Origin: Amphiscolops sp. MND2022
Lineage: Eukaryota
DNA: 64,000 nucleotides
Direction: 5' to 3'
NCBI GenBank assembly: GCA_964187785.1
Contig: OZ076409.1
Location: 58,716,001-58,780,000 of the forward strand
A model generated the notes under the pieces. That model did not search any database. It had not been told where the DNA came from and worked only from the letters and a program-made list of their open reading frames with translations. This document shows positions 17,548 through 42,700 of this stretch, in pieces (position 1 is the stretch's first letter; each line of letters starts with the position of its first letter). The position numbers were made by a program, and so were the translations under genes.

Positions 17548-17550
17548 AAA

Positions 17551-18159
17551 CAAGACGGGAACGTCTAAAGTCGGCGCTATATCTAAGGCTCAAAAAGCGC
17601 AGAGTTTTCTAAATATGCCCAGGATGTATTCATGAAAAGCTTTGAAAACACTTTCGAGACACCCAAAGTGTGCCTTTCATGCTCGATATGACTGGAAAAT
17701 CACTTTTCCCGACTGGAAACAAAAAAAATTGAAAATTTTTCTGAAAATTTTTTTTTTGAAAAAAAACTTCGAAAACGTCGCACAGTGCCAAAAAATGAAA
17801 AGGGGGGACCCTTTGGGATTCATTAACATAATTTGTTGCAAAATATCAAAAAATCCGAAGGGGGGACTCTTTTGAGACATCAAAAAATTTCGAAAAAAAA
17901 ATTCGCACAGTGCCGAAAAAAAATTGAAAAGGGGGACCCTTTGGAGTCTTCCGGTTTTGTAGGTTACGTAAAAAAGGTGAAAAACGAAAGGGGGGACCCT
18001 TTGCAGTAAGTTTGCATTCGTCGAACTTGGCCTGAGTGAACTTATCAGTTTCTGTAAAAAGTGGTACATACGCGATGAGCTCTGTGGTCTGACGAAAAAA
18101 AAACTAGCCACTGTAATAGTCGGGCTTTTTTCCTTAAAGGAAAATGCGCCGACTAAAAA
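17551..18159 (-). mobile_element. Helentron-like repeat family 1, full-length copy
   Basis: caagacgggaacgtct-aaagtcggcgc ... agtcgggcttttt-ccttaaagg-aaaatgcgccgactaaaaa. Confidence 0.8.
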
Positions 18160-18289
18160 TGTAAAAAACCCAAACCTAAAAACTTCTAACTGAAAGTGTT
18201 GTTTTTTGAACGATTCTCCCGATTTGAACGAGTGATAAAAGTGAAAGAAAAATAAATTCCGTCTCACGCAGAAGTTTTGACAATCAATA

Positions 18290-18902
18290 GTTTTAGTCGG
18301 CGCCTTTTCCTTTAAGGAAAGAAGCCCGACTATTACAGTGGCTAGTTTTTTTTTCGTCAGACCACAGAGCTCATCGCGTATGTACCATTTTTTACAGAAA
18401 CTGATATGACTACTCAGGCCAAGTCAGGCCAATGGAAACTTAGTGCAAAAAGTCCCCCCTTTCATTTTTTTACCTTTTTTACGTAACCTACAAAACCGGA
18501 AGAGACTAAAGGATCCCCCCTTTCAATTTTTTTCGACACTGTGCGAAATTTTTTTCGAAAATTTTCTAAGGTCTCAAAAGAGTCCCCCCTTCGAGTTTTT
18601 TGATATTTTGCAACAGAATGTATATTAATGAATCCCAAAGGGTCCCCCCTTTTCATTTTTCGGCACTATGCGTTATTTTCGAAGTTTTTTTTCAAAAAAA
18701 AATTTTCAGAAAAATTTTCAAATTTTATTTTGTTCCCAGTCGGGAAACAGTGATTTTCCAGTCATATCGAGCATGAAAGGCACACTTTGGGTGTCTCGAA
18801 AGTGTTTTCAAACCTTTTCATGAATACGTCCTGAGCATATTTAGAAAACTTTGCGCTTCTTGAGCCTTAGATATAGCGTCGACTTTAGACGTTCCCGTCT
18901 TG
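18290..18902 (+). mobile_element. Helentron-like repeat family 1, full-length copy, inverted relative to 17551-18159
   Basis: ttttagtcggcgcc...gcccgact ... gcgtcgactttagacgttcccgtcttg; close to the reverse complement of the preceding copy. Confidence 0.8.
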
Positions 18903-19292
18903 TTATATACATATTTTGTGCCACAATTCTTAACCTCAATTAACAATGATACTTAAAGCAGCCTTTTTAAAACTTCTGAACCGTTTTCCCGGCAGCCCGG
19001 ATTTTTTAAAACTTGAGACTTGGATTTTGAAGATTTCAGAGTTACCTTTAGCCAACTATGGCAAGTTAACCAAAATCACATACTTCGAGTTGGCTTTTTC
19101 CTAAAAGCTGGCGGGGCGGGATAGGAAGTACATGTAAATAAGATATGTCAATTCCATTTCAAATCAAATTATAACTTCTATAATCATCACCAGAGATACA
19201 GTATTTACAATTAATAAATTCGTTTGTAAAACAAGGCCACATTATACATAATCAAAGTGAAATAATTAGATTCAATTTCCTGGGACTGGGAA

Positions 19293-20362
19293 TCATGTTT
19301 TCTGGGACTGAGAAAAGCGATCGAACGCTTGCTCTAACATGGTTCTCAGGTGCGGGTAATAGACGGAGTATTCTTTTAACCCCTCGTTGCGGATATTCTG
19401 CACATAAACCTCCAAAGCGGAACCCAAGAAAGCGACTCTGTCTTTCTCGGTGGGGTGCTCAGCAAACCATTTACTCACATCAGCAATGTCCATATTTGAT
19501 ATCACGTGAACAGGAGCAATTGACGGACAAGCTTTGGAGAAGAGAAGTAAAATCAAGCTACTCATTCTCACAAGATCTGAAGATTTCACGAGGTCAATCA
19601 ATTCTTCAGGTGAACTTTTCAGCGCTGACTTGAAAAGTCTCAGCCCTTTGAATGAGAACGAAGTCCCGGGTTTCAGAATTTTCAAAGACTGTTCGAACAT
19701 TTCTACATCGTTTTCAATGATGACGTAATTTTCAGGCCCTATTTCTTGCGCACCCATCATTATTGCAACATGGAGCATAAAAAAATCAGTAGCCGATATG
19801 AAAAGTTCGTTCATAACTGAATCTAAACAGGAATCGCAGTTGAATTTGCTCAGATAACTGGTGCTCACGCGTTCTGTGAATGATGAAAGTTCCTTGATAT
19901 ACAAAGAAGCAGATTTATTATGCTCATCTGATGACAACGACCCAAATTTCTTCACCTTATTCTGAGCTTCGTTCACGACATTTTCCTGGTGCATCGTCTT
20001 TATGATATCTTTGATGTATTTCTCAGCTTTGTCCATCCAAGTTTTAATAATCTGACAAACTGTTGATTCTAATTTATCCAATGCTGGTTGCAACACTGCC
20101 AAACAAGTCTTCGACATGCTGAGTTTCGATAATGCAGTTTCCAAGTCATTTTTGAAAGAATAAACATGGTTTGCAATGCTGATCATGAATTCTTGGGTCG
20201 AATTCACAGGTCCCAAAAGTTGCCAACATTCTGGAACACTGTTAGGCACAATTTCTTCAATTTTAATGGCAAAAAGGTTGATGGCTTTGACCACATTTCG
20301 ACATACAAGTTCCATTAAGTCCAAATCGAAAAGAACCACCGTGAGTTCTGTTGATATTGCAT
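19293..20362 (-). CDS. COG5: Conserved oligomeric Golgi complex subunit 5, last coding exon
   Basis: Acceptor ttttag at 20363-20368. Translation (N)AISTELTVV...NVVKAINLF...QLLGP...TMHQE...SLYIKEL...KWFAEHPTEKDR...ALEVYVQ...YYP matches the COG5 C-terminal half. Confidence 0.9.
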
Positions 20363-20644: not shown

Positions 20645-20967
20645 CAAGACGGGAACGTCTAAAGTCGGCGCTATATCTAAGGCTCAAAAAGCGCAAAGTT
20701 TTAGAAATACCAGGACGTTTTTATGAAAAACTCAGAAAACAGTTTCGAAACACCCAAAGGGTGCCTTTCATACTCGATAAAACTCGGAAACCACTTTTCT
20801 CCAACTGAAAGCAGGAAAAACTTTTGAAAAAAATTCGCAAAATGTCGCATAATGCCGAAAACCTTAAGGAGTCCTATATGCCCGCAAAACGTTTCGTTTC
20901 TAGTAAAAGTCGAGGGGGTGTCGATAAAAACAAATTGGAAAAACAAAATTCGGATATAGCGTGCTGG
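20645..20967 (-). mobile_element. Helentron-like repeat family 1, left half of the copy split by the Polinton
   Basis: caagacgggaacgtctaaagtcggcgc start; resumes at 35112, collinear with the uninterrupted copy at ~11531-11640. Confidence 0.8.
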
Positions 20968-21199
20968 AGTAGTAATCGAATTCCCGTTCCTAATATATAA
21001 AAACCCTAAATTTAAGCATTTTTTCCAAAAAAATCGATAAAATTGGTGTTTTTTCACTATTAAAAAATAAAAAAATTTAAGCTCGTAAAATCATCAAAAT
21101 TTAGCATTTTTTCAAGGCAAACCATCTAAAACTAGCCTTTTTTCACAACTAAAAATTTAACAAAATAAAAATCGATGAGCAAATTTTTCCAGTGGAAAA
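20968..21199 (+). repeat. Left terminal inverted repeat of the Polinton
   Basis: Reverse complement of 34873-35105; outer 164 bp identical. Confidence 0.95.
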
Positions 21200-21619
21200 C
21201 TTTGTCACAAACCAAAATTGAACTAACCTCCATCGACGTATAATAGAATTATTACCACATCGTGAAGAAAAAATGAATACTTACCAAATGCGTTTAAGTA
21301 GAAAACACAAGTGTCCAAATTGAAAACGAGTTTTTTTCTTCATTTTTACCCATCAAAAAATTACATATAAAAATGATGAACACATTTTTCATTATTGATA
21401 AATTCAATGGTGCGCACAAGTGGACACCACAACTGTTGGAAAAATTACCACCATATAAATTTCAAACAAAATTTCACGCACCAGATGGTCGTCTGACCTT
21501 GAGGTGCATTCGGAATGCACCAAAATTTCATTTTTCACTTTTCTATCTACAGTCACAGCAAACAGCATGGCCGAAGAAATGAAACTGGCAAAGAGACTTT
21601 TTCCATTCGGACTTTCACT

Positions 21620-22030
21620 CTTAAACATGTAGAGATTACTAATAGGTCAGGAAAAAGGCCATAACTCAACGAATATTTGAGTTACAACAAAGTATAATAT
21701 ACCATTGAAAAGGTCTCGACAAGGGCTATCTATCTAGATACAATTCGAAAACCTAGTACAAATGTATACTATCTGAAACTTCGAAAAACCTGAAACCCTT
21801 AAACATGTAGAGATTATAAAAGTTCAACATATCACAGTGTATGATACATCATTGGAAAGGTCTTGAGTTGGAGATCACAGATTTTGAATATTTTCATGAT
21901 TGGGTACCCACAACTGAAACTATACCATCTCAAACCTGAAACCCTTAAACATGTAGAGATTATAAAAGTTTAAGATATTGCCATGTGTGATACATCATTG
22001 GAAAGGTCTTGAGTTTCTGATTACAGATTA
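21620..22030 (+). repeat. Degenerate direct repeats (~146-178 bp spacing) in the Polinton left non-coding region
   Basis: cttaaacatgtagagatta at ~21620, ~21798 and ~21944; cattg(a/g)aaaggtct in each unit. Confidence 0.75.
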
Positions 22031-22183
22031 TAAAAATTTTCTTAAATGAAATATTTATCATTCAAATCTGTGGCAAATTTTAATACCTTACCACCACAAA
22101 ATTAAAATATTTTTCACCAATTTTTTGAAAAATTATATTTGAAAAATTTTTAATTAAACTATTTTTTTCTTTAATAAATAGAA

Positions 22184-25100
22184 ATGGAGAATTGTAGTAT
22201 TTGTAATTTAAATTATAAAAAAGCTTTCAAGTCTGATCATCTAAAATCAGTAAAACATCTTGAAAAATTAAATCAATATTATTGTAAAAAATGTTATTTA
22301 TATATGCCTATCTCAGATAAAAGTTCTCATTCAAATTCAGATGAACATAAAAACCGCATCAATAAAATATGGTGTGAAGATTGTAGTAAATATATATCTG
22401 ATACAACAAGACATTTCCAAAGTGAAATTCATTTACGAAACCGTCAACAAAACGGTATGCAAAGCCAGCGAAGCTGTATTACAGATTTCGGTACAGCTTT
22501 GCTGCCCTCCGGTAATGGAGTAAATATAATTGTGAATGAAAACACATACATTAAACTGAAAATAAATCCAACTGAAAATCTTGAAAATCGTATAAAAGAA
22601 TTAATAAGTAAAAGGTACTTTCCTCGATTTAAATATCAATTGAGTTATCTAGCTAAATTTTCAAAAATAATCAATGGAGAAGAAGAAGTATTTAAAAGAT
22701 GGATAAAATCAGATCTAATATATAATCATACACAACAAGATACTCATAACACATTAATACAGAAATTAGATGATGAACAATTAGAAGGATCAGGTTTTGT
22801 GTTTCAAGAAATAGAAGAAGTTATATTAGAAATATATAAAGTTAATGATATTCAAGCATCTTCATATATTGAGTTACCACCAAAATATAAAAACAGCCAA
22901 TCAATAATAAATATAAAAAATAATGATCAATTGTGTTTTCTATGGTGTATATTAGCATATTTATTTCCAGTTGAGAATAATAAAAATATAACATCGAGTT
23001 ATTCAAAACATTTTGATAAATTCAACCTAGAAGGTTTAGAATTCCCTATGAAAGTCTAAGATTTTCCCAAGTTTGAAAATTTAAATATTGGACTGTGTAT
23101 AAATGTATTCGAACTCACAGGAAATGTGCTAACACCAATCCACGTTAACAAAAATTACTTACAACCACAAATAGATTTATTATTATATCAAAATCACTAT
23201 TGTTTAATAACAAAATTGCATTGTTTAATAAATAAAGATTCACATATGAAACATGTATGTAGAAGATGTTTAACAGCATTTAGTTCACAACCAGTTCTAA
23301 TTGATCATATAGATCGTTGTCAAAAACAGCAACCAACTAAAATTACATTCAGTTGGAAGGATCAGTTAAAGTTCGAAGATTATTATATGAAAGTTCCTGT
23401 ACCAATAAGAGTATATGCTGACTTTGAATGTATCAATCAACCTCAAAATACCCCCAACGCGTTATTCAAACAAATTCCAATTGCAGTAGGATATTATGTA
23501 ATTTCACCATTCGGAAATTATTACTATTCATATTTTGGAACAGATTGTACCAAGTGGTTTGTAAAGGAAATGTTAAAATTAGAACTAGAAGCAAATAAAT
23601 ATTTTAAAACAAACTTAGAATTACAAATAACTCCTCAAGAGGAAGAATCATTTCAACTTGCAGAAGAGTGTTGGCTTTGTGAAAATCCACTCGATGATAC
23701 TAAGGTTAGAGATCATGATCATCTAACAGGAAAATACAGAGGAGCAGCTCATAATATATGTAACATAAATTGTAAACAAAGGTCATCAAGTTTTGTTCCT
23801 ATATTTTTCCATAACTTTTCTGGGTATGATTGTCATCTTATATTTGAAGAACTCTTAACCGAAGCATACAATCAAAATTATAATCCAACGATAATTCCAA
23901 AATCACTGGAAAATTATGTTAGTGTACAAGTAGGTTGTTTGAGATTCTTAGATTCATACCGATTTCTTTCTTCCAGTTTAAATAAATTAGTTAAGAGTTT
24001 AGACAATTTTCCTATCATGAAATTGGAAGGAATGAGTGATGATTTATTTAAAAAGAAATTAGCTTATTCATATGAATACTTAAATCTTGATAACTTTCAG
24101 GAACCATTAAATCTAACCAAAGAAGATTATTGGTCAACATTAACACAATCTTATCCATCAGATGATGATATAAAAAGAACTCAAGAATTAATTGATAAAA
24201 ATAAAATTAAAAATGGAAGAGAATTAACAATGTTATACTTAAAAATGGATGTTCTTTAATTAGCTGATGTATTTGAAAACTTTGTGGAAAGTTCTACACG
24301 AGAATATAAAATTAATCCTTTGTACTCTTATAGTCTACCTGGTTATACATGGAAAGCAGGATTGAAGTTGACTAATATTGAATTAGATTATATAAAATGT
24401 AAAGAATTATTATTACTTTTAGAAAATAATATCCGTGGAGGAATTTCAAGTGTAATGGGAGATCGTCACGTGCAATCTGATGAAAATAAACAAATCTTAT
24501 ATATCGATGCAAATAATCTATATGGATGGGCAATGAGCCAATATCTTCCTACTGGCGAACTCGAAATATTACCTCTTAATCCGTGTAATTACACAGATAA
24601 TTACAATCTAGAGCAATTAGTAGAAGATTTATTACAAATACCTGATGATAATGAATATGGTTACTTCATAGAATGCGATTTAGAATATCCTGTTGAAATT
24701 AAAGAAAAAACAAAAAACTTTACTTTTTGTCCGTATCAAACAAAAGCAGATCCAGACTTATTCTCAGGTTATATGAATAGTGTAAATCAACCTAATTACA
24801 AACCAACATCAAAACTTATGTGTGATGTAACCAATAAATCGAAATATATGATACATTATAGGATGTTTAAGTTTTATCTTAACCAAGGGATGAAAGTAAC
24901 GAAGATACATACTATCTATAAGTTTAAACAAAGTCCATGGTTAGGTAAATATATCGATCATAATACTCAGAAACGCACAGTAGCGAAAACAAACTTTGAA
25001 AAGGATCTTTATAAATTAATGAATAATGCTTTCTTTGGGAAGACAATGGAAAATGTAAGAGATAGAACCAATCTAGAATTCATTGATCATTCTCAAATAG

Positions 25101-25972
25101 ATCAAATAATAAAAAGACAATCCAAGTTAAGTTTCAAAGGCATTGTGGATCATTATTCTAAGTTTAGTGTGTACAAGTTTGATAAAGAAAAAACAGTCTT
25201 TGATAAACCAATTTACTTGGGATTCTCTGTTTTAGAACTGAGTAAGTTGTTAATGTATGAGTTTTATTATCATACTTTAGAACCATATTGGCAAAATAAA
25301 GTTCAACTACACTACATGGATACTGATTCTTTCATACTTAGTTTTAATGCTAACAATCGAGAACTAAGAAACTTTTTACAAGAAAACAAAGATGAATTTG
25401 ATTTCAGTGAATTAGTTAAATCTCATGAATTTTATGATCCTATTAACAAAAAAGTTATAGGAAAAATGAAAATTGAAACAAGTCCAGTTTTGGTGTTAGA
25501 TACATTCACAGCATTGCGATCAAAGTCATATTCTTTCAGTTACAATAATCCGAATGGTATCACTCAAAAAGCGAAACAAAAAGGAATACAAAAAGCTCCC
25601 AAATGTGAAGAATATCAAAATTCATTGTTTAATTCAGAATCATCAAGTTCTACAAATATATCAATTAGATCTAATTTACACAACCTTACAGTTGAAAAAC
25701 AAAACAAACTAGCTTTGAATCCTTTTGACGATAAACGTTTGTATATAAATCCAATACAAAGTTTACCATGGGATAAACACACACAAAAAGGCGATTGTCC
25801 ATGTATATATTGTTTGAAATTAATTGGTTTGTATTATAAAGATTTAACTATAAATGTTGACGGTAGCAAGAAAACAGATGAAGAAATATATTGGAGTGTT
25901 TGGTATTGGAAACAAGCACTCACCCATCAACAACTTGTGAAGTTGATAAGTGATCGAGCACATGTTTTATAA
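22184..25972 (+). pseudogene. Protein-primed family B DNA polymerase (pPolB) with N-terminal zinc fingers and an endonuclease VII-like insert; two in-frame TAA stops
   Basis: The three track ORFs share one frame, separated by TAA at 23057 (FPMKV*DFPKFE) and 24257 (DVL*LADVFENF). Motifs: VYADFEC, FHNFSGYD, YIDANNLYGWAM, KLMNNAFFGK, YMDTDS; insert CWLC..VRDHDHLTGKYRGAAHNICN. Confidence 0.93.
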
Positions 25973-26097
25973 AAATAAATATTTAATTTTTTATTTATAT
26001 TTATAATTATTATCATTTGATAAAAATAAGTATATTATTTTATAAATTTATTTATCATATCAGCAAAGCTGTATTAATATATTTAAATTATATTTAT

Positions 26098-27325
26098 TCA
26101 TAATAAATCAAAATGCCTTTGTCCATCACTACTGATACTTATCAGCTTGGGTGTTAGGACTAGGGCATAAGCTATATAATCTGCTACATTAATGGCAGCA
26201 TTAAATTTGAATTCTAATCTAATAGGTTGACTCCCGATGGGGTCTTTTTGTTTGGATAAATCAAATACATAGAAATAATAATTTGTCCTGAATTTATGCA
26301 AATCAATAAATGGATTGAGTAGATTAGTTTCACTTTTTAACAAATAGAAGTTTTCAATTTCACTGTATGCTTGATCATATTTATCTCTATCATAATCACA
26401 TTCTATTCCATCATCTGGATACTTTTCTGATCCTATTTTACAAACAGCATTTGAAACAGGTAAACGATCAAATACTGCATTATCATGTGTTTGTGAATCA
26501 ATTTTATTTCTAGCTTGAAAAGCAACAATTACAAAAGTTGGTGTTGATTCTCCACTATTACCTAATTCAAATGTCCAATTATTATTCGTGTTAACATCTT
26601 TTCTAAATACAATCCGTTCCATGTAAAATAATTCAGTTGGATCTTTGTCTAATATTTGATCCATCACGAGTTGTTGGTTTTCCATTGATGGTGTGTAGTG
26701 TGGAATATGCCAGGAGATGTCTTTTATATTTATTTTTGCAGCAGTAATCGCATTGTCCCTGATAATAGGATCATTATTATTATTTCGTTTTAATGTGAGA
26801 CTGTAACCCAATCCATAAGTTATTTTTTCTTGATCAGCGAATCCAATCAAGTCTTTGTTTTATTCTCACAAAAAAGGTTCCTTTCTCTGTCTTATTGTTA
26901 GTTAGTTCTTGTCTTCTGATAGTACTACTTTCTTCAAACCCATACATCAATTGAGAAGTTTGTTGAGTGTTAGTTAAAAGTTTAATCATTAAAGAGATGG
27001 GGTGCAAATTGTCAACTTTTTCTAGGTGTTTTCCCGAACTTGTTGTCAGCTTAGCTTCACTAAATAAAGCAACGGGTCCAAAATTAACAAAACTTATTTG
27101 ATCACCATCTGCATATCTTGTATCATCATTTTTAAGAACTTCAAATTCTAATGATATGTATGAGTTTTGTAAACAAATATATGCATCTTCTCTTGGGAAG
27201 ATGATGGAAATATTTGAATTATTATTGTTGATTGTAGCTAAACTACTAGGTGAGTATTGAATAAAATCAATTTTATGAATAGGTTTATCCATAGCATATT
27301 TATTTTTCAATGAGAATAATTCCAT
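26098..27325 (-). pseudogene. Major capsid protein (double jelly-roll type), one frameshift near 26855
   Basis: Joined reading is ~409 aa and beta-rich: ...SYISLEFEV...VNFGPVALFSEAKL.../DLIGFAD...ISWHIPHYTP...PTFVIVAFQ...FYVFDLSKQ...IRLEFKF. Motifs, size and context are typical of Polinton MCP. Confidence 0.8.
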
Positions 27326-27451
27326 TTTTATAGAAAAAAAATTCAATTTTTTCTGCACAAACTTTTAGTTTGCAAACCTTTGGTTTGTATAGAAAAAACA
27401 TTTATGATGATGATTTAAATTTTATATTTATTTCATTTTTACTAAATAAAT

Positions 27452-27973
27452 TTATCCTAAAAAAGTAAACTCAGAATTTAGTTTAGTTTTGTTCGTTTTG
27501 TACACATCGTAAGTTTGTTTTAATTTGTTGTATTCATTCAGATCAATTTTATTGTCTTCTAAACATTTTGAATGTAGTTTTTGGTAGCCGTGTAGTGTTC
27601 TACCAGCAAGAGTATATTTTTTAATATTGTGTTGTTCTTTTCTTTTCAGATACTCGTTAAGAATTTTACTGATTATACATAAACCTGCACCTATACCACT
27701 TGCTATAGGTACAACAACAAGTCCAACTCCTGTGGCACTCAACGTGACACATGTTGATGATACTGCTAGTACTGAAACTCCATCAATAGATTGAATTAAA
27801 CCGTTTATAATTTTATATATTTTACATTTCTTCTTATACTTTTTAGCTTCATGATTATAAAAATTTTGAATATCTTTTATATTTTGAATTGAATTGTTAA
27901 AACTATTTATTTCTTTCAATCTAAGATCAAGATTATCTGATTCACGTAAACAAGGATACAATTTTTCACTCAT
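27452..27973 (-). CDS. Polinton membrane protein, 173 aa (N-terminal LYPxL, coiled coil, Gly/small-residue-rich hydrophobic hairpin)
   Basis: Intact ORF with TAAATG start; hydrophobic stretch GVSVLAVSSTCVTLSATGVGLVVVPIASGIGAGLCII. Confidence 0.75.
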   Translation of the reverse strand: MSEKLYPCLRESDNLDLRLKEINSFNNSIQNIKDIQNFYNHEAKKYKKKCKIYKIINGLIQSIDGVSVLAVSSTCVTLSATGVGLVVVPIASGIGAGLCIISKILNEYLKRKEQHNIKKYTLAGRTLHGYQKLHSKCLEDNKIDLNEYNKLKQTYDVYKTNKTKLNSEFTFLG

Positions 27974-27997
27974 TTAATTTTAAATAAAAACTTAATT

Positions 27998-28711
27998 TTA
28001 GTTTTCAAAAAGTATGAAATTTATCTCAGTATCGGTTAGTTTCATTCTATATTTAAGGTCAACTATATCTTTGTATTCATCTTTCTTTAAGCACTTCACG
28101 ATATCTTCTCGCGTTGAATAGTCTAAATCAGATAAATAATACACACCATCTGATGTCTTTATTTCTGTTCCGTATTTTTCCAACAAGTATTCATCACTAA
28201 AATATAAGTACTCATTAAAGATTTGGTCTTTATTTTCAAATGAGTCAAACAATCCTTTGTTGTACAATAGTTGTATAACATCTTTGATGGTTTGATTTTT
28301 ACATTTTTCCAATTCCGAAATAAGGTTTCTCTCAAAATGATTACGTAAAATGGTTAGTTGTTCTTCCACTAACTTGGCAGCATCCAAAATAATTTCTTTC
28401 TTCTTTTCTAAAAATTTGTTTTTAACATCTTGTTCTAAATATTTCAAATTTATTTTTATATCTTCTATACTCTTGTTAATGTCTAAGAATAACTTTGCAT
28501 TGACTACGATTTGTGTTTCATCGTTGATAAATTGAATTTCTTCTATGTTTTGCAAGTTATTGAACTTTTTTAATTTATCACCAAAGGTGCTTTGTAAATC
28601 ATTAAGTTTTATATTAATTAATTTGGTTTGTGATTCAAACTCTTTTTCTAAATTCTCAATCTTATCTTTTTGTAAGCTTTCGGCACTATAACCGAATTTA
28701 TGAATTGACAT
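27998..28711 (-). CDS. Polinton hypothetical coiled-coil protein, 237 aa
   Basis: Intact ORF tightly packed between neighbours; K/E/L-rich heptad pattern. Confidence 0.7.
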   Translation of the reverse strand: MSIHKFGYSAESLQKDKIENLEKEFESQTKLINIKLNDLQSTFGDKLKKFNNLQNIEEIQFINDETQIVVNAKLFLDINKSIEDIKINLKYLEQDVKNKFLEKKKEIILDAAKLVEEQLTILRNHFERNLISELEKCKNQTIKDVIQLLYNKGLFDSFENKDQIFNEYLYFSDEYLLEKYGTEIKTSDGVYYLSDLDYSTREDIVKCLKKDEYKDIVDLKYRMKLTDTEINFILFEN

Positions 28712-28728
28712 TATTTATATAAATATAT

Positions 28729-29622
28729 TCACTCATTTTGATGGAAAATATTCATACTTTCTAACGTTTTGTTGTTAGATTCAAAGTTGAATACACTTCT
28801 TAAAAGTTCTTGTTCATAATATTTTCCTTCTATTTGTTCGTTGTTTTCATCTACTAAACCATACGTAACTGGGTTAGTTAGATTAATTTTATGTATTTTC
28901 AAAAGTTCTCTATTCCAATTTGTTGTATAACCTTTACTATATAAATTGCGTTTATCAGGAACTCTTACATAGTCTCCCATTTGGAATTTGGGTTGTTTAC
29001 GCAAAGCGCCCTCGGTGTTTTTAAACTTATTACGCAGAGCGCCTTCGGTATTGTTAGGTATTAGTTTTTGATTAGTTGACATTTCAAAAGGTGTCATCTT
29101 AATAGTTCCATGGACACGATTATTATATTTTTCCAAAGCAGTATCAAGGTGATTCAACCAACAAGCTTTACCCTCAATATACATTGGTTCCTTAATTAAG
29201 TCCAGAAGTGTTCTATTGAAACGTTCAACAAAAACAGCTTTTAAATCTGAATTAGTTGAATAAATTTGAATGTTTTGCTCTTTTAAATAGTGTAAAAATG
29301 TTGTGTTGTAAAACTCTTTACCTCTATCACTCAATATTTTGTGTGGTTTTCTCTTCTCTTTTTCGATAAGACTTTTAAATGCAGTTGTTGTACTTTTTCC
29401 TGATTTATCTTCAAGAGGAATTGCCCATGCATACTTAGTATGATTGTCAATTATTGTGAAAATAAACTTGTAGTTCTTATTATATTTTGATAAGCTAGAT
29501 CTGTCTATCAAATCAATACTCCAACACTCATCTTTATAATGGGGAATTATTTTAATACGATCAAACTTTTTAATTACAGGAGAGAATATTTCTTTAGCAA
29601 TTTCTTTCTTCTTTTCACTCAT
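28729..29622 (-). CDS. Retroviral-type (rve) DDE integrase, 297 aa
   Basis: WSIDLID...IIDNHTKYAWAIPL...ILSDRGKEF...KAVFVERFNRTL, then C-terminal GDYVRV...KGYTTNW; ORF intact; fits the 6-bp TSD. Confidence 0.95.
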   Translation of the reverse strand: MSEKKKEIAKEIFSPVIKKFDRIKIIPHYKDECWSIDLIDRSSLSKYNKNYKFIFTIIDNHTKYAWAIPLEDKSGKSTTTAFKSLIEKEKRKPHKILSDRGKEFYNTTFLHYLKEQNIQIYSTNSDLKAVFVERFNRTLLDLIKEPMYIEGKACWLNHLDTALEKYNNRVHGTIKMTPFEMSTNQKLIPNNTEGALRNKFKNTEGALRKQPKFQMGDYVRVPDKRNLYSKGYTTNWNRELLKIHKINLTNPVTYGLVDENNEQIEGKYYEQELLRSVFNFESNNKTLESMNIFHQNE

Positions 29623-29636
29623 TTATTTCCTAATAA

Positions 29637-30647
29637 ATGAATAAAAAATTATATATAGGTTTATTATGTGTAATCTTTATTATAGTTTTATATATTTATT
29701 GGTATTATATTAAACCTAATTATTATAAAAAATTATACCAAAAACTAAAACAATTCAAGGGATTTAAATATTCTCATTTAACTAACAAAGAAGAAGAACA
29801 AGAACTTACTCCACCAAACACAAGTACAAATAGTCACTTTTTGGTGTATGGTACTAGTGGATCAGGTAAGACTAGTTTCCTTAAGTATTATTTAAATCAA
29901 ACTAAAACAAATTTTATAGTATTCGGTAGAGATGAAAATGAGTTTAAAGATAATTATATACCTTTGTTACAGTTAGAAAATATTGAAATAGAGAAACTCG
30001 CTAATAGAACTATAATTTTAGATGATGCAGGAGCATTCAAACAACTCAGAACTAAAGTAGAAGACTTATTTCGGTTTGGTAGACACAATAATATACAAGT
30101 TATATACCTTGCTCACTATGCAAAGGATGTTCTCCCAATAGTGAGAGAGAATTGTTTTAAATTATATATCACAATAAATAATCCAGATAGTTTCTTTGAA
30201 ACCATAATACAAACTTATTCAATCAAAGAAGATCTCAAATGGAAACAATATCGTAGTCAGTTAGAATTTGGTGTAATTGAATTTGATACTAGATCACAAA
30301 AGTATAAAATACTCAATCAAAAGTATCAACTAATCTACGATACAACTAAACATAAATGGAGTCCTGAGGATTATGTAAAGTATGAAAGTTATTTCTTTAC
30401 AGGTGAAGAATATAATAAACTTAAAATATTCCTAGAAGATATGTCAGATCAAACAATTGAAATAACACCTTTTAATGTAGCTTTTTATTATGTATATTAT
30501 TGTAAACAAAATAAAATAAAAGTGAATGAATCTAAAATAGACAATTACGTTGAACGCATGCAACAACCATTAATTTCAGATCAACTTAAAGAGGAATTTA
30601 AGAAAATTATAATTGATCAAGCAATCAGGTTTAGTAAAAGTAATTAA
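29637..30647 (+). CDS. A32/FtsK-HerA-like ATPase 1 with N-terminal transmembrane helix, 336 aa
   Basis: LYIGLLCVIFIIVLYIYWYYI; Walker A GTSGSGKT; Walker B IILDD; FRFGRHNNIQVIYLAH. Confidence 0.85.
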   Translation: MNKKLYIGLLCVIFIIVLYIYWYYIKPNYYKKLYQKLKQFKGFKYSHLTNKEEEQELTPPNTSTNSHFLVYGTSGSGKTSFLKYYLNQTKTNFIVFGRDENEFKDNYIPLLQLENIEIEKLANRTIILDDAGAFKQLRTKVEDLFRFGRHNNIQVIYLAHYAKDVLPIVRENCFKLYITINNPDSFFETIIQTYSIKEDLKWKQYRSQLEFGVIEFDTRSQKYKILNQKYQLIYDTTKHKWSPEDYVKYESYFFTGEEYNKLKIFLEDMSDQTIEITPFNVAFYYVYYCKQNKIKVNESKIDNYVERMQQPLISDQLKEEFKKIIIDQAIRFSKSN

Positions 30648-30664
30648 AAAATGGGTCTGATTTC

Positions 30665-30786
30665 TTAGTAAAAAATCACTAAGCAAATTCACTAAGAGCA
30701 TATATTTTTCACTAAGCAAATAAGGTTACACTTAAAACATCATGCTCTTAGTGAATTTGCTTAGTGATTTAGTGATTTTTTACTAA
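30665..30786. repeat. Intergenic inverted repeat with perfect 29-bp arms built from TCACTAA units
   Basis: aaatcactaagcaaattcactaagagcat (30673-30701) / atgctcttagtgaatttgcttagtgattt (30742-30770). Confidence 0.9.
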
Positions 30787-30790
30787 ATAA

Positions 30791-31744
30791 ATGAAGTGTA
30801 TAATTTGTGGAAAAAGTAATGAAAAATCTGTTTGCTCTGATTGTGAGAATAAAAAAAGATGTAAAGTGTGTAATATACTGAAAACAGATTTTTACAAATA
30901 TAGAAATGGTAAATTGTATAGTACATGTATAGAATGTTTCAATAAAAAAGTAAAATGTGAATTCTGTAATAAAGAATTCAATAAAACTTATTTATCAAAA
31001 CATTTAAAAAGATGTAATATCAATCATGATAATACAAATAATGAAAATATAAATCATAATGAAAATCATGATAATAATAATTATACAAATAATATTATTA
31101 CAAATGATGATACTGATAATAATGATAATATTATGTTCACCGGAGGCCAGCAAAGCTGTAATCGAACATTGATAGTTGGTCCATCATTTTGTGGTAAGAC
31201 CCATTTGTTATTAAACAAATTACAATTAATTCGTTTAGATAATCCTGAACAAAAGATATGTATCATTACGAGGAGTCCGGAACAATACAAAAAAATTGAA
31301 ATAGAAGATGTTTCAGTGGAAGAAGATTTAGGTGATAAAAGTATTCAAGATTTTCAAAATTGTTGTGTTGTATTTGATGATATGTTAGACTCCAATCAGA
31401 AATTAATAGATCTATTTTTTACTAGGGGAAGACATAATGATCTGGATGTTTAATATTTGTCACAGTCATATTTTGATTTACCTAAAAGAACAATTAGAAA
31501 CAATAGTAATATTATAATTTTATTTCAACAAACATTGAAAGATGTTGAACACATTTATAGAGACATAGCAGGTTTTGATATGTCTAATGATGAATTCAAA
31601 AGTTTATGCAGAGAAGCATGGCGGGATAATTATAATTATTTATTAATAAATAGGTTAGAAGATAAAAATGGGAGTAAGTATATGATATGTAATGAATCCA
31701 ATCTGCAATACCAGATATTTAATCCACAAACTGATCCTTTTTAG
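30791..31744 (+). pseudogene. A32-like packaging ATPase 2 with N-terminal Cys-rich zinc fingers; one in-frame TAA at 31451
   Basis: Repeated CxxC pairs; Walker A GPSFCGKT; Walker B VVFDD; FTRGRHNDLDV*YLSQSYFDLPKRTIRNN read in one frame. Confidence 0.88.
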
Positions 31745-32691
31745 TAAAAGTGCTTATAAGGTTTTTATGTTGATTTGTTGTAATACATTGGTATTGTAAA
31801 AGTTTATCTGCAATTGCTATGATTTGTTCACTAAGCATAGGATTATCATTTCCTCCTACTTTTTCAAAATAGAGTAGTTTTAATTGATCTACAAGCTCAT
31901 CAGGATCCGATGGAAGGAAGACATACTGATTAAATCCACTTCCTAATTGGGATAGTTGATAAGGAATATGTTGATATATGTATTGATTATTTAAATCTTT
32001 AATGAAATAATATCTCTTCGATTTTTTATCTCCATAATTTATATTATATTTCATATCATTCAAAAAAGAATAAATTTGATTCACGTTTTGTGGTTGCGTG
32101 TCTAGCTGTGCATTAGTTATAAAATATGAAAGATCCGGATCCTTCAAATTGTATTTGTTACCACTACTCAAGAAGGTTAGTGTATTATTTCTAATTAGTA
32201 CTTGTTGAGGATTAATAGGGTTAATTATGAATAAATTTGGATTACCTTCACCGAATTGCGTAACAGGTTCTAAACTAAATTGACTTTTGTTTTTGTCATT
32301 AAGCAAATTAGAAACTGTCTTGATTATAGTAGAATCAACTTGGTTGGAATTCACATGATCTGTAACAAGTTGATTATTACGGTAAGTAATTTCATCATAT
32401 TCTTTAATCGATTTTTGTAAATTTTTATTCAAAGCGTTACTCGATTCTCGTATTGCTTGTGTTGTAGTTTGAGTAGAATCACGTAACGCTTGTAATTGTT
32501 TTTCAGATTCTAGCTTGGTTTGGTTTTGACTTTTTCTGATTTTCAGTAACTGGTTCAAAAACTTCTTCCATATCATAATGAAAGTCTTGTTTCCCTAGGA
32601 GTTGTTTTAATCTTTCAGCTTTCAAAGAAGATTTTGTTTCTTGCATTTTTTTAAATTTTTCTAAATCATCTCGATTATGAATTGAATACAT
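31719..32691 (-). pseudogene. Conserved Polinton protein, frameshifted in an A-run near 32533
   Basis: N-part ...EEVFEPVT... joins C-part ...GSG...FLPSDPDELVDQLKLL...GGND...EQIIAI, a motif pair typical of Maverick uncharacterised ORFs. Confidence 0.65.
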
Positions 32692-32740
32692 AATTTATTA
32701 TTCATGAAAAATAATATTTAATTTACAGCTCGGCTGTAAA

Positions 32741-33142
32741 TCAATGAATTTTACCCAAGTACAGACCTTTTCCTTGATGAACAAATTTTATAATATCAGG
32801 AGCAGTTGCGGCTATCATTCGAGGATTTTTACTTGCTGCTGCAGTACCGATATTAGCTGCGAGTTCTAATGCTCTTCCAGGATTGTTTAAAATTTTCTTT
32901 CCGACATTCTTGGCGGCTTTTCCTATGCCTCGGAAAAAGTCACCTAATCCTTCTGCTTGTATAGTTTGATCAGATACTATAAGTGATTTATTTCTTTTAC
33001 AAGTTGAACAAGTACCTCTTAATAATTTAACAGCTGCTCCAGTTTTTTTATTTTGAGTAATATCTCCACGAATATTTGTGGTAGCGGAATAATGTTTTCC
33101 ACCAACACAATATGAATTATTTTTAAATTTATTAAAGCTCAT
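32741..33142 (-). CDS. Small basic protein, 133 aa: zinc-ribbon-like N-terminus plus amphipathic helix (putative core or membrane-lytic protein)
   Basis: YCVGGKH...GTCSTCKR, then QAEG-LGDFFRGIGKAAKNVGKKIL; C-terminal GKGLYL. Confidence 0.75.
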   Translation of the reverse strand: MSFNKFKNNSYCVGGKHYSATTNIRGDITQNKKTGAAVKLLRGTCSTCKRNKSLIVSDQTIQAEGLGDFFRGIGKAAKNVGKKILNNPGRALELAANIGTAAASKNPRMIAATAPDIIKFVHQGKGLYLGKIH

Positions 33143-33198
33143 TTATTAGAAAAAAATATTTATTTTTTTTCTAAGCAAACCTTTGGTTTGTATATATA

Positions 33199-34245
33199 TT
33201 AAATCTTGATGATTTGAATTGTAAATGTTAATGTCTCCCCGTTGAAATCAACTGGGTTATGATTGTTATCCTCAAGGAAAAATTGAATACTATCTAACCT
33301 TGTTTTGTTTATTTTTTTATACAAAATAATATTGGGTTCTTTTATAATTTTATATCCAGGAGGAGCACTAAGATTAAAAGAAAATAAAATTTGTTCTCTA
33401 ATCCCGTTAACAATTGATCCATCTACACAATCACATTTAAGATGAACTTTGTCTGTAGTTGTTATCATAACTGGTTTTTCTGATATATGAGTTCCTGCTG
33501 GATATTCCTTGTTTGTAAACCCTAAAAGTTTATTTAATTCTGAATTAAAATATATACCACTAGTAGTTGTTAAAACTGATTTCATTGATATTGTATCTGC
33601 TTCTATGTTGAGTTTAAAGTCAGAACTACCACCAGGTAAAGTACAACATTTAATAAGTTCTTGCTGGATGGTATTATTTATATCAACTAATTCATATGCT
33701 CCTGGTGGTAGTTCTATTTCAATGGAATCAGTTACAGATCCAATTCCAGAAATAACAATTGGTTTATCTTTAATGTGCAATGCACCTTCGGTATTCTGAT
33801 TAATTTGATCAATCATTTTCATCAAATAATCATAATCTGTTTTAGTAATAGTCTTAATTTCAGCATTATCATTAACTATAAGTTTTTTAATTTTTTCTAT
33901 ATCACCAGAGGTTTTATATAAATACTCAACATTTGTTACTAATTGAGTGTCAACATCATTTTCTTTTAACATTTTTTCTGTATAAAGAAGTTTAAATTTA
34001 TTGTTCTTCTCAGTAATGTTATAAACTGTATAATATACTTCTAAACTTGTTACTCCCATCATCCATTGTTCAGGTAAGTCTAGTGGAAAATAAAATGAAA
34101 AAGATTCTTTTTGTTTATTCATTTTAAATTCTAAAGTTTCTTGTGGTTTGGATAAGGTATTTTCAACAATATCCAAATTAGATTTTGCAATACTCAATAA
34201 AAGAGATTCTTTTTTATCATAGGTTACAAAATTTGATAGATCCAT
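33199..34245 (-). CDS. Minor capsid protein (penton, single jelly-roll), 348 aa
   Basis: PLDL..WMMGVTSLE...NITEKNNKF...LPPGAYELVDIN...KLLGF...HLKCDCVDGSIVNG...PPGYKI...DNNHNPVDFNGETLTFTIQI; typical Polinton mCP motif order. Confidence 0.85.
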   Translation of the reverse strand: MDLSNFVTYDKKESLLLSIAKSNLDIVENTLSKPQETLEFKMNKQKESFSFYFPLDLPEQWMMGVTSLEVYYTVYNITEKNNKFKLLYTEKMLKENDVDTQLVTNVEYLYKTSGDIEKIKKLIVNDNAEIKTITKTDYDYLMKMIDQINQNTEGALHIKDKPIVISGIGSVTDSIEIELPPGAYELVDINNTIQQELIKCCTLPGGSSDFKLNIEADTISMKSVLTTTSGIYFNSELNKLLGFTNKEYPAGTHISEKPVMITTTDKVHLKCDCVDGSIVNGIREQILFSFNLSAPPGYKIIKEPNIILYKKINKTRLDSIQFFLEDNNHNPVDFNGETLTFTIQIIKI

Positions 34246-34248
34246 TTA

Positions 34249-34431
34249 TTAGGAGAAAAATTGTTTAAATCCATTTGCGGATATCTTATTTATAAATTCT
34301 TGGTTTTGTTTTGATAATTTCTTTTTTGGATTATTTTTTTCTATTACTTTCTCATCAAATTGATTCTCATTGGTATTCATTGGTTTTTGAATAATTTTAA
34401 ATTGAGCTGAATAATTATTAATTTTCTTCAT
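34249..34431 (-). CDS. Small hypothetical protein, 60 aa
   Basis: Fills the gap between protease and mCP exactly and starts in TAAATG like its neighbours. Confidence 0.5.
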   Translation of the reverse strand: MKKINNYSAQFKIIQKPMNTNENQFDEKVIEKNNPKKKLSKQNQEFINKISANGFKQFFS

Positions 34432-34438
34432 TTAGGAA

Positions 34439-34832
34439 TTATAAATTTTGGTAGTATAAATTTAAAACTGCATTTTTGAAGCTAATTATATTTGTGGGAT
34501 AGAACACATACAAACAATAAGCTGCACAATAACTGTCGTCTTTCTGGATTTGATATTCTGAAAAGATACCATTATTAATTTGTTTTGTTATATTTAGTGG
34601 TGGTGGACAGCCATATGAATCGAAAGTTTTGGTTTGTAAACATAACCCAATGTGTTCCTTTAGTTGGATGTAAGTTAACTATACCACTGGTGGTTATAAA
34701 TTTATCATCTCTCATATATATTCTACAAGATGTGTTCATGAGTTTTAAGATTTCTTTTATTTCTACATTGGAAGTTGCTTCATTTTTTAATCCATATTTA
34801 TTAACAAATTCTTTGAATGATAAATAATTCAT
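34439..34832 (-). pseudogene. Adenain-like cysteine maturation protease, frameshift near 34626
   Basis: GIVNLHPTKGTHWV / FDSYGCPPP...YQIQKDDSYCAAYCLY gives the His-Asp-Gln-Cys catalytic set; stop at 34439-34441. Confidence 0.88.
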
Positions 34833-34872
34833 TTATTAGTTATTTTTCCATGATTATATCTTGGTCAATGAA

Positions 34873-35105
34873 TTTTCCATTGGAAAAACTTGTTCATCGA
34901 TTTTTATTTTGTTAAATTTTTAGTTGCGCAAAAAAGGCTAATTTTAGATGGTTTGCCTTGAAAAAATGCTAAATTTTGATGATTTTACGAGCTTAAATTT
35001 TTTTATTTTTTAATAGTGAAAAAACACCAATTTTATCGATTTTTTTGGAAAAAATGCTTAAATTTAGGGTTTTTATATATTAGGAACGGGAATTCGATTA
35101 CTACT
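34873..35105 (-). repeat. Right terminal inverted repeat of the Polinton
   Basis: Reverse complement of 20968-21199. Confidence 0.95.
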
Positions 35106-35511
35106 TGCTGGTCCAATGAGAAAACCAAATTTCAAGACGAAAAATAATCATTTTGCAAAATCTCACAATGCCGAAAATTGTAAAAGAAGGAACCCTTTAG
35201 ACTTTTTGAAAATCCAGTTTGTTGCAAAATATCAAAAAAAAATGAAGGGGGCACCTTTCGGAGGCATTAATTTGTTTGAAAAAACTCAGTGCCATAAAAA
35301 ATTAAAAGGGACCCTTCAGTCTTGTCCGGTTTTGCAAATGCACGAAAAAGTTTCTGGGTGAATCAGGGACTCGAACCCGCGACCATTGAATTCCCCCTAA
35401 ACCGATTAAAATCTGTTAAAATTACTAAAAAGTGGTACATGCAGGGTGAGATCTGTGGTCTGACGAAAAAACAAGTGTCTTAACTTTCTTAGGAAAAGCG
35501 CCGACTAAAAA
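35106..35511 (-). mobile_element. Helentron-like repeat family 1, right half of the copy split by the Polinton
   Basis: Resumes after the TSD and ends ggaaaagcgccgactaaaaa. Confidence 0.8.
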
Positions 35512-39723: not shown

Positions 39724-42700
39724 GTTGGGTACAGTTTGATATTTTCCCAAAATTTGTTTTCAAATTTATTTCCAAATAAATGAGAGGTTCATAACCAAAT
39801 TTCAATTCAAAATTCAACTACCATAAACTGTTTGCCAGGATATGTAATTGCAGTGATATTTGAACTTCTTTGATGACCCAAATGACCTCAAAAGAGTCCC
39901 CAACATTTAACCCTTTCATGACAATTTTTAAATTTTTTAACGAACAGCTTTTTAGAATTTTTTGTTCGGAGAATTTATTTTTCATTAGGATTTCCAAAAC
40001 ATCGTTGCTGGAATCTGCCAACTAAAAACGGTCAGTAAACGCCAGACATCGTAGTCAAGAAGTAAGATCAACTGGTAATCTATATACCTGCACATTTTGA
40101 ATATAAGCTAAATTTTTCAAACGCATTAGAGTTCCCAGTTTGTTTTAAAATACTATTCCATGAAAGTTGCTTTTGGACACTTCAATTATTTACTTTAAGA
40201 CAGGCGCTGTCGATCCTGATGGTTTTCATATGAATATGATCAGAAACCTTGGAGCAACCGCAATAGCATTTCCACTGAAGACATCCAATGTTGCTGAATG
40301 CTAGATCCATGCTCTGCGGCCTTGTTCTCGTTCGAGAATCGTATTTTAGAGGAAAACCAACAAGGAGCAGTACGATGATTGCTCAAACTATCTACCGCTG
40401 TCCATTGCAAGCCAATTTGGTAAGAATTTCGAGCGGATGCTATTCAGCCGACTAAATGGGTTCTTGGAGGATACATGTGTGCTATCTAGCTAACTAGGTT
40501 TCAGGAGGAAAAGAAACCTCAGATCCTTATACAAGCTTCACATCAACTTGAAGCATTTTAAAATGAAGACACAAACAACTTCACTCAACATCGAATGAGA
40601 AAAAGCGTTAGTCTATGGATCGATGGACTCTTTATGTTGGGTACAGTTTGATATTTTCCCAAAATTTGTTTTCAAATTTATTTCCAAATAAATGAGAGGT
40701 TCATAACCAAATTTCAATTCAAAATTCAACTACCATAAACTGTTTGCCAGGATATGTAATTGCAGTTATATTTGAACTTCTTTGATGACCCAAATGACCT
40801 CAAAAGAGTCCCCAACATTTAACCCTTTCATGACAATTTTTAAATTTTTTAACGAACAGCTTTTTAGAATTTTTTGTTCGGAGAATTTATTTTTCATTAG
40901 GATTTCCAAAACATCGTTGCTGGAATCTGCCAACTAAAAACGGTCAGTAAACGCCAGACATCGTAGTCAAGAAGTAAGATCAACTGGTAATCTATATACC
41001 TGCACATTTTAAATATAAGCTAAATTTTTCAAAAGCATTAGTTCCCAGTTTGTTTTAAAATACTATTCCATGAAAGTTGCTTTTGGACACTTCAATTATT
41101 TACTTTAAGACAGGCGCTGTCGATCCTGATGGTTTTCATATGAAAATGATCAGAAACCTTGGAGCAACCGCAATAGCATTTCCACTGAAGACATCCAATG
41201 TTGCTGAATGCTAGATCCATGCTCTGCGGCCTTGTTCTCGTTCGAGAATCGTATTTTAGAGGAAAACCAACAAGGAGCAGTACGATGATTGCTCAAACTA
41301 TCTACCGCTGTCCATTGCAAGCCAATTTGGTAAGAATTTCGAGCGGATGCTATTCAGCCGACTAAATGGGTTCTTGGAGGATACATGTGTGCTATCTAGC
41401 TAACAAGGTTTCAGGAGGAAAAGAAACCTCAGATCCTTATACAAGCTTCACATCAACTTGAAGCATTTTAAAATGAAGACACAAACAACTTCACTCAACA
41501 TCGAATGAGAAAAAGCGTTAGTGTATGGATCGATGGACTCTTTATGTTGGGTACAGTTTGATATTTTCCCAAAATTTGTTTTCAAATTTATTTCCAAATA
41601 AATGAGAGGTTCATAACCAAATTTCAATTCAAAATTCAACTACCATAAACTGTTTGCCAGGATATGTAATTGCAGTGATATTTGAACTTCTTTGATGACC
41701 CAAATGACCTCAAAAGAGTCCCCAACATTTAACCCTTTCATGACAATTTTTAAATTTTTTAACGAACAGCTTTTTAGAATTTTTTAATCGGAGAATTTAT
41801 TTTTCATTAGGATTTCCAAAACATCGTTGCTGGAATCTGCCAACTAAAAACGGTCAGTAAACGCCAGACATCGTAGTCAAGAAGTAAGATCAACTGGTAA
41901 TCTATATACCTGCACATTTTAAATATAAGCTAAATTTTTCAAACGCATTAGTTCCCAGTTTGTTTTAAAATACTATTCCATGAAAGTTGCTTTTGGACAC
42001 TTCAATTATTTACTTTAAGACAGGCGCTGTCGATCCTGATGGTTTTCATATGAAAATGATCAGAAACCTTGGAGCAACCGCAATAGCATTTCCACTGAAG
42101 ACATCCAATGTTGCTGAATGCTAGATCCATGCTCTGCGGCCTTGTTCTCGTTCGAGAATCGTATTTTAGAGGAAAACCAACAAGGAGCAGTACGATGATT
42201 GCTCAAACTATCTACCGCTGTCCATTGCAAGCCAATTTGGTAAGAATTTCGAGCGGATGCTATTCAGCCGACTAAATGGGTTCTTGGAGGATACATGTGT
42301 GCTATCTAGCTAACAAGGTTTCAGGAGGAAAAGAAACCTCAGATCCTTATACAAGCTTCACATCAACTTGAAGCATTTTAAAATGAAGACACAAACAACT
42401 TCACTCAACATCGAATGAGAAAAAGCGTTAGTGTATGGATCGATGGACTCTTTATGTTGGGTACAGTTTGATATTTTCCCAAAAGTTGTTTTCAAATTTA
42501 TTTCCAAATAAATGAGAGGTTCATAACCAAATTTCAATTCAAAATTCAACTACCATAAACTGTTTGCCAGGATATGTAATTGCAGTGATATGTGAACTTC
42601 TTTGATGACCCAAATGACCTCAAAAGAGTCCCCAACATTTAACCCTTTCATGACAATTTTTAAATTTTTTAACGAACAGCTTTTTAGAATTTTTTGTTCG

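Follow-up and report, generated by a model that had tools for sequence, protein, structure and literature searches.

Animal Polintons, Mavericks and adintoviruses carry a protein-primed DNA polymerase B (pPolB), an rve integrase, a capsid protein, an ATPase, terminal inverted repeats and a 6-bp target duplication (PMC8097293; PMC8502044). No conditions for particle formation are known for animal Polintons, and a virophage role has been raised as a possibility for those of vertebrates, without promoter evidence (PMC8097293); the available text of the adintovirus paper and of a 2026 preprint on mosaicism does not mention promoters. How animal Polintons are expressed, and whether a helper virus is needed, is the open question addressed here, using a Polinton provirus in the genome (1.07 Gb) of Amphiscolops sp. 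MND2022 (assembly GCA_964187785.1). The provirus lies in a window of 64,000 nucleotides, by which we mean the whole stretch of DNA analysed (contig OZ076409.1, positions 58,716,001 to 58,780,000, forward strand); positions given below are those of the window. Most genes of this element begin in the motif TAAATG, which together with an upstream T-run forms a two-part element that is fused to the start codon and maintained by selection.

Statements on published systems follow the portions of the cited sources that were available to us. Protist virophages use the promoters of their helpers, and reactivation is limited to the type whose motif matches (PMC10945749; Gezel-14T, 10.1101/2022.07.28.501842; 10.1101/2025.10.09.676808). 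Mavirus and the EMALEs of Cafeteria, together with Gezel-14T, offer a close comparison: they are integrated and virophage-like, share promoter motifs with a helper virus and comprise element types of differing GC content and motif within one genome. However, they differ in having protist hosts, mimivirus-type motifs, a known helper and an experimentally shown dependence on it. In animals, AHEV_PLV1 and CBEV_PLV1 have been proposed as hyperparasites of poxviruses; the entomopoxvirus-associated AHEV_PLV1 has PF21738 as its top capsid match and branches beside mavpol2, and the two share with the present element a PF21738-type capsid, an A32 ATPase and, as candidates in the present element, a small protease and a mu-core-like gene (PMC11296320). 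In contrast to this element, they have no rve integrase, and they were recovered together with occlusion bodies instead of existing as numerous germ-line copies. The main text of that report mentions neither promoter, transcription nor motif, nor TAAAT.

Poxviruses themselves provide the motif for comparison. Vaccinia late promoters place TAAAT(G) over the start codon with a T 10 nt upstream, and intermediate promoters combine TAAA with an AT-rich stretch 15-19 nt upstream (PMC11980589). The poxvirus polymerase slips on the initiator and thereby produces a 5' poly(A) leader (PMC6211774), and salmon gill poxvirus retains this promoter element (PMC4542343). Egoviruses, the closest relatives of poxviruses according to the available description, are tied to gut protists and have been a source of genes for Trichomonas polintons.

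In the window copy, TAAATG contains the start codon of 8 of the 12 open reading frames (ORFs), those starting at 27973, 29622, 29637, 30791, 33142, 34245, 34431 and 34832. This count, made in the original prediction, held when coordinates and contexts were rechecked, and the remaining four starts are the close variants described there (Table 1). TAAATG contains 15 of the 486 ATGs elsewhere in the element, compared with those 8 of 12 starts (Fisher p=2.5e-9), and when the 30 bases upstream of each start were shuffled, the mean was 1.0 and eight was reached in 1 of 20,000 runs. The longer form CTAATAAATG occurs four times in the element (29630+, 33149-, 34252- and 34839-), always at a start. The start of the major capsid protein (MCP) gene in the window copy is a local variant, as TAAATG is present in 20 of 21 MCP start calls from other copies. 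Furthermore, the ATGs of the divergent integrase and ATPase 1 genes are 14 nt apart (29623-29636), as first claimed, and within this spacer the complement of each TAAATG serves as the T-run of the opposite gene. Two other viral motif types were tried and rejected: the baculovirus-type TAAG lies within 60 nt of just 2 of the 12 window starts, and the mimivirus-type AAAATTGA lies upstream of just one.

The motif is conserved across the family. An integrase search of the genome scored 132 matches of 16,331 candidates, and 20 of these 132 copies, with integrase identities of 81-92%, made up the conservation set. TAAATG stands at 154 of the 193 start calls in these 20 other copies, the total including about six internal-ATG calls for ATPase 1 that were scored as misses. 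By gene, it is found for ATPase 2 in 18/18, the minor capsid candidate in 16/16, the 27973 gene in 14/14, the protease in 12/12, the integrase in 18/19, the 33142 gene in 18/19 and the 34431 ORF in 14/16. Both off-pattern genes mostly use TAAAT shifted by 1-2 bases: the 28711 gene has strict TAAATG in 0/14 copies and TAAAT overlapping the ATG, or one base ahead of it, in 12/14, and the 32691 gene has TAAATG in 5/18 and TAAATTATG in 12/18. For pPolB, an in-frame ATG lies within TAAATG in 12 of 18 readable starts, five others reading TAAATAG and one being altered; two of the 20 loci gave no start. The spacer between integrase and ATPase 1 measures 14 nt in 13 of the 20 copies and 22-34 nt in five, and was not called in two.

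Over the nine motif genes, conservation is 0.96-0.97 at positions -3 to -1 and 0.93 and 0.91 at -14 and -13, versus 0.60-0.89 over the rest of -30 to -4. T makes up 83% at -14/-13, the T-run lying 10-11 nt upstream, and T occupies -3 in 96% of orthologous starts. Since the vaccinia T 10 nt upstream corresponds to position -13, it coincides with the T peak of these elements. At the MCP gene, TAAATG is retained although the upstream sequences do not align between copies.

A polymerase search led to a second AT-rich Polinton family (about 65 matches), whose capsid is 45% identical. Among ten copies, TAAATG is in the majority in 18 of 31 ORF clusters, eight of which score 10/10 (MCP, integrase, ATPase and five others), and it is present at 159 of 244 ORFs overall; the clusters scoring zero are mostly of 45-80 aa. 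The frequency of T is 0.70 at -14, 0.83 at -13 and 0.80 at -12. As in poxvirus late promoters, both families place TAAAT(G) across the start codon, preceded at about 10 nt by a T that has further T residues around it; the T peaks are at -14/-13 and -13/-12, respectively. Two polymerases without a BLASTP match to each other occur in the second family, and both start in TAAATG (9/9 and 4/4). That family (G000:C2:54124011-54138744, comprising L029 and L031, and L212-L229) carries either polymerase, a replicase exchange within one family.

The two-part element is confined to one kind of Polinton, whose start context is unlike that of the host and whose coding strands are full of host polyadenylation signals. 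A shared TAAATG context in host genes had been named as the finding that would speak against dependence on a virus; among host tubulin and histone starts, TAAATG is found in 0/11 and a purine at -3 in 11/11, a small control set (12 tubulin and 4 histone rows, less three non-start matches and two duplicates). Histone tandem repeats of about 3.63 kb are present in many copies at G000 C33, C67 and C4:21.12-21.17 Mb; such arrays, like the genome size and the introns, point to an animal host. GC-rich Polintons of the same genome have TAAATG at 0/75 starts and a purine at -3 in 68%; the sets of 75 and 18 starts and the start lists of outside elements were hand-picked from ORF lists, with nested antisense and most truncated ORFs omitted. 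These GC-rich elements (L021-L028 and L032-L039; about 41% GC) have genes that for the most part run in one direction and often overlap, as well as a capsid candidate that matches no Pfam family, and they under-use TAAAT. In equally AT-rich pPolB elements from metagenomes, TAAATG was found at 0/11 (L045), 2/12 (L064) and 2/11 (L068) starts.

Sense-strand AATAAA occurs at 2.9 and 2.5 per kb in the two motif families versus 0.38 per kb in GC-rich Polintons. Relative to expectation from synonymous-codon shuffles, which were also used for ATTAAA and GTAAG, AATAAA stands at 1.03 and 1.26 in the motif families, that is, it is not avoided, and GTAAG at 1.00 and 0.74. GC-rich Polintons avoid host polyadenylation signals, with ATTAAA at 0.55, and they also under-use GTAAG (0.34). 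Avoidance of TTTTTNT was rejected as a discriminator, as the motif families score 0.69 and 0.48 but the GC-rich elements 0.78 and other AT-rich elements 0.54. The triplet before the ATG is TAA in 313 cases, TAG in three and TGA in four, and the same ORFs terminate in TAA in 165 of 313. The pre-ATG TAA is the stop codon of the upstream gene in only 1/155 cases in the window family and 20/158 in the second family; together with the near-absence of TAG and TGA, this rules out stop-start coupling.

Neither host genes nor GC-rich Polintons have the T-run and TAAATG, and the motif families do not avoid polyadenylation signals; both findings argue for a polymerase provided by a helper. On sequence grounds, we consider it fairly probable that an RNA polymerase of poxvirus-like type, acting in trans, transcribes these elements, which would be endogenous virophage-like viruses. 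The best-supported reading is that of the original prediction, transcription by the machinery of a large cytoplasmic DNA virus, and it rests on the host and GC-rich controls and the T-run match; the part of that proposal that calls for a helper has no counterpart in the assembly, where no helper gene was found. The likeness to poxviruses extends to short divergent spacers, which by our own subtraction from a published table measure 17, 19 and 26 nt in salmon gill poxvirus (PMC4542343). The setting differs, in that the motif here belongs to a 14-kb integrating element in which no RNA polymerase or capping enzyme gene was found, and it marks nearly all genes, polymerase and integrase included. 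Compared with other animal Polintons, the helper-type promoter here separates two Polinton kinds in one genome.

Under the helper-polymerase reading, the compact T-run and TAAATG of each gene would constitute a post-replicative promoter of poxvirus type, read by the RNA polymerase of a co-infecting large cytoplasmic DNA virus. The helper polymerase would start within the AAA, slip and add a 5' poly(A) leader, and the mRNA would thereby lose the unfavourable T at -3. In the cytoplasmic factory of the helper, genes would be read singly, pPolB would copy the genome and the A32-type ATPases would fill capsids, and further copies would enter the host germ line by way of the element's integrase. Without the helper, integrated copies would be silent, and would await the next helper infection or decay, as the window copy did. 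An antiviral benefit of the elements is possible.

Among 83 pPolB loci on contigs of viral or metagenomic origin, most are without the motif; the exceptions, of capsid type not assigned, have TAAATG at 4/5 (L055), 3/5 (L044) and 2/3 (L057) starts. Three outside elements with a PF21738 capsid have T(A)2-7 before the ATG in 10/12, 8/12 and 5/11 starts (null 2.9, 2.1 and 1.4) and an A-run near -26 to -20; this TAAA with an A-run resembles the intermediate type of vaccinia. These three (L248, L250 and L251) sit in contigs of bacterial genome bins and are probably eukaryotic contamination. The capsid has many relatives (5,330 of 8,000 scored), proteins of scallop, bryozoan and Hydra among them. When viral contigs were scanned with the integrase or the capsid as query, the outcome was either nothing or L041 alone, and a phage search gave no match.

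Several observations weigh against helper dependence or against a poxvirus as the helper. Among the three outside PF21738 elements, strict TAAATG is found only in L250 (5/12), the other two scoring 0/12 and 0/11, and L232, a weaker PF21738 match, shows only 3/12. L064, which is without a PF21738 match, has T(A)n-ATG at 11/12 starts; the motif is short and AT-rich, with looser forms outside the capsid family, and need not point to Poxviridae. L248 is poor in GTAAG (2 versus 6.8 expected). The copies are related, and counts, contrasts and z-scores are therefore not independent and only indicative. Searches of the assembly with Pox_VLTF3, Capsid_NCLDV, Pox_D5 and Pox_Rif gave no match, three of the four having no positive control, and an Rpb2 search gave nine matches, all in three intron-split places. 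A non-integrating virus would be expected to leave no gene in the assembly, and the helper stays hypothetical.

The very high copy number seen in the integrase search would be easier to explain for an autonomous nuclear element, and this leads to the strongest alternative, in which host RNA polymerase II, perhaps aided by an element-encoded factor, reads the motif as a start signal or compact core promoter. The many open frames, the lack of a helper gene in the assembly and the several element genes without known function fit such a view. However, the prevalent T at -3 is set against a purine in all host starts, the divergent spacer is only 14 nt, and the pPolB span of the window alone contains 13 sense-strand AATAAA, with no avoidance. 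In addition, a TATA-like box fused to the ATG would place the transcription start within the ORF. We regard an autonomous nuclear element as unlikely.

A second alternative is that the polymerase comes not from an infecting virus but from a persistent cytoplasmic linear element. The yeast virus-like elements pGKL1/2 are protein-primed, AT-rich linear DNAs that use a TAAAN initiator and a poxvirus-related polymerase, and they encode this polymerase and a capping enzyme themselves (PMC6211774), unlike the element here. A resident helper would account for the copy number. To our knowledge, pGKL1/2 have neither a capsid nor an integrase. However, the promoters of the yeast elements resemble the early poxvirus type (PMC6211774) and the motif here matches the late one, and the assembly contains no extra Rpb2-like gene, although a divergent or unassembled one could escape. 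This source of polymerase appears distinctly improbable, and we give no better chance to a third alternative, that the motif was inherited from an ancestor that depended on a helper and is now an unused relic. The decayed window copy and the lack of a helper would agree with a relic, but the motif is kept while adjacent bases change and behind non-homologous upstream sequences, and it is shared by two distant families, in one of which an exchanged polymerase gene also bears it. Finally, it is very improbable that the pattern arose in a compact genome from AT-richness, from the coupling of stops to starts or from polyadenylation signals that overlap: TAA is a stop codon and AATAAA lies within four window starts, but the start enrichment, AT-rich controls and stop-codon counts largely refute this explanation, and no gene lies upstream on the same strand in the case of integrase, ATPase 1, protease and pPolB.

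The features of the provirus are listed in Table 1. Its assignment to the Polintons (Mavericks; Polintoviricetes) follows from the terminal inverted repeats and the 6-bp target duplication TGCTGG (20962-20967 and 35106-35111), from protein-primed PolB and the rve integrase, and from a double jelly-roll capsid and an A32-like ATPase. The element has a GC content of 27.5% versus 32-45% in the flanks. The pPolB pieces of the window copy have no PF03175 match and were named through 29-35% identity to PF03175-positive ORFs. The minor capsid protein and cysteine protease (34245 and 34832) are candidates only, with no match in the family library; the latter identification is likely, judging from catalytic-type residues in the L031 homologue. 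Decay is evident in the pPolB frame (1263 codons), with stops at codons 292 and 692, in ATPase 2, with a stop at codon 221, and in the MCP, 32691 and protease ORFs, which are split or short. The window copy is thus broken and unlikely to act alone as an inducible provirus.

Table 1. Position, strand and start context of features of the Polinton provirus in the window
Feature	Position	Strand	Remarks
Polinton provirus	20968..35105		14,138 bp; AGTAGT ends; decayed copy
Left terminal inverted repeat	20968..21199	+	repeat pairs 93% and 92%
Protein-primed DNA polymerase B (pPolB)	22184..25972	+	two internal stops; start is T-run then TAATAAATAGAAATG
Major capsid protein (MCP), split	26098..27325	-	PF21738 E=3e-14; start TATAAAAATG in window copy
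173-aa protein, hydrophobic stretch	27452..27973	-	TAAATG start; homologues with weak SLATT-like match
237-aa protein, no assigned function	27998..28711	-	start TAAATAATG
rve integrase, intact	28729..29622	-	E=2e-11; TAAATG start
Putative interlocked two-way promoter	29620..29639		back-to-back TAAATG pair, 14 nt between ATGs
A32-like ATPase 1, intact	29637..30647	+	PF04665 E=1e-5; start CTAATAAATG
Long intergenic hairpin	30665..30786		-49 kcal/mol; ends at ATPase 2 motif
Zinc finger and A32-like ATPase 2	30791..31744	+	one internal stop; TAAATG start
Conserved gene, no assigned function, split in window copy	31719..32691	-	start TAATAAATTATG
133-aa basic protein	32741..33142	-	likely core-protein-like, judged by eye, no family match; start CTAATAAATG
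348-aa protein	33199..34245	-	likely minor capsid, from size and place, no family match; start CTAATAAATG
60-aa conserved ORF	34249..34431	-	TAAATG start
Likely cysteine protease, short in window copy	34575..34832	-	start CTAATAAATG; first gene inside right repeat
Right terminal inverted repeat	34873..35105	-	same repeat pairs; terminal repeats of about 230 bp

A block of A-run, T-run and TAAATG, sometimes after a CAAACC hairpin, precedes different genes in different copies (window 33143-33198 and 27326-27400; L004, L006, L010 and L012), as if a promoter block moves between genes. Transcripts of the yeast elements are hairpin-terminated (PMC6211774). Here, hairpins throughout the intergenic regions are not general in the lineage, perfect intergenic hairpins being observed versus expected as 3 versus 0.2 in the window, 10 versus 1.3 in the family and 1 versus 0.7 in the second family, with none in L015. 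In mimivirus, transcript ends follow a hairpin rule. Between the left terminal repeat and pPolB, positions 21600-22010 are short, of higher GC and rich in direct repeats, possibly an inserted host repeat. Outside the provirus, a lone 340-aa ORF resembling a host gene (19293-20315, minus strand) lies about 650 bp left of the insertion, a fold-back element of nested inverted repeats occupies 17549-18904, and at 39724-50670 a unit of about 910 bp is repeated in tandem at least 12 times with 99-100% identity.

Helper-matched promoters are already known in protist virophages, but for animal Polintons we found no earlier report: the TAAATG motif is not reported for them in the full texts searched, a search outside which most subscription papers fall. 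The helper-polymerase reading predicts an unknown poxvirus-like virus of this host, and under it the virophage model, which covers protists and two insect samples, would come to include germ-line families of very high copy number. The 30-base element can be tested directly with a reporter and offers a marker by which any animal genome could be scored from sequence. More tentatively, the whole lineage of animal Polintons with a PF21738-type capsid, with its relatives in scallop, bryozoan and Hydra, might consist of endogenous virophages of poxvirus-like viruses, a possibility that we hold with less than even confidence. If this is true, pox-like viruses of invertebrates that are yet to be discovered would have left a fossil record in these start motifs, and animal Polintons would sort into helper-dependent cytoplasmic and autonomous nuclear kinds.

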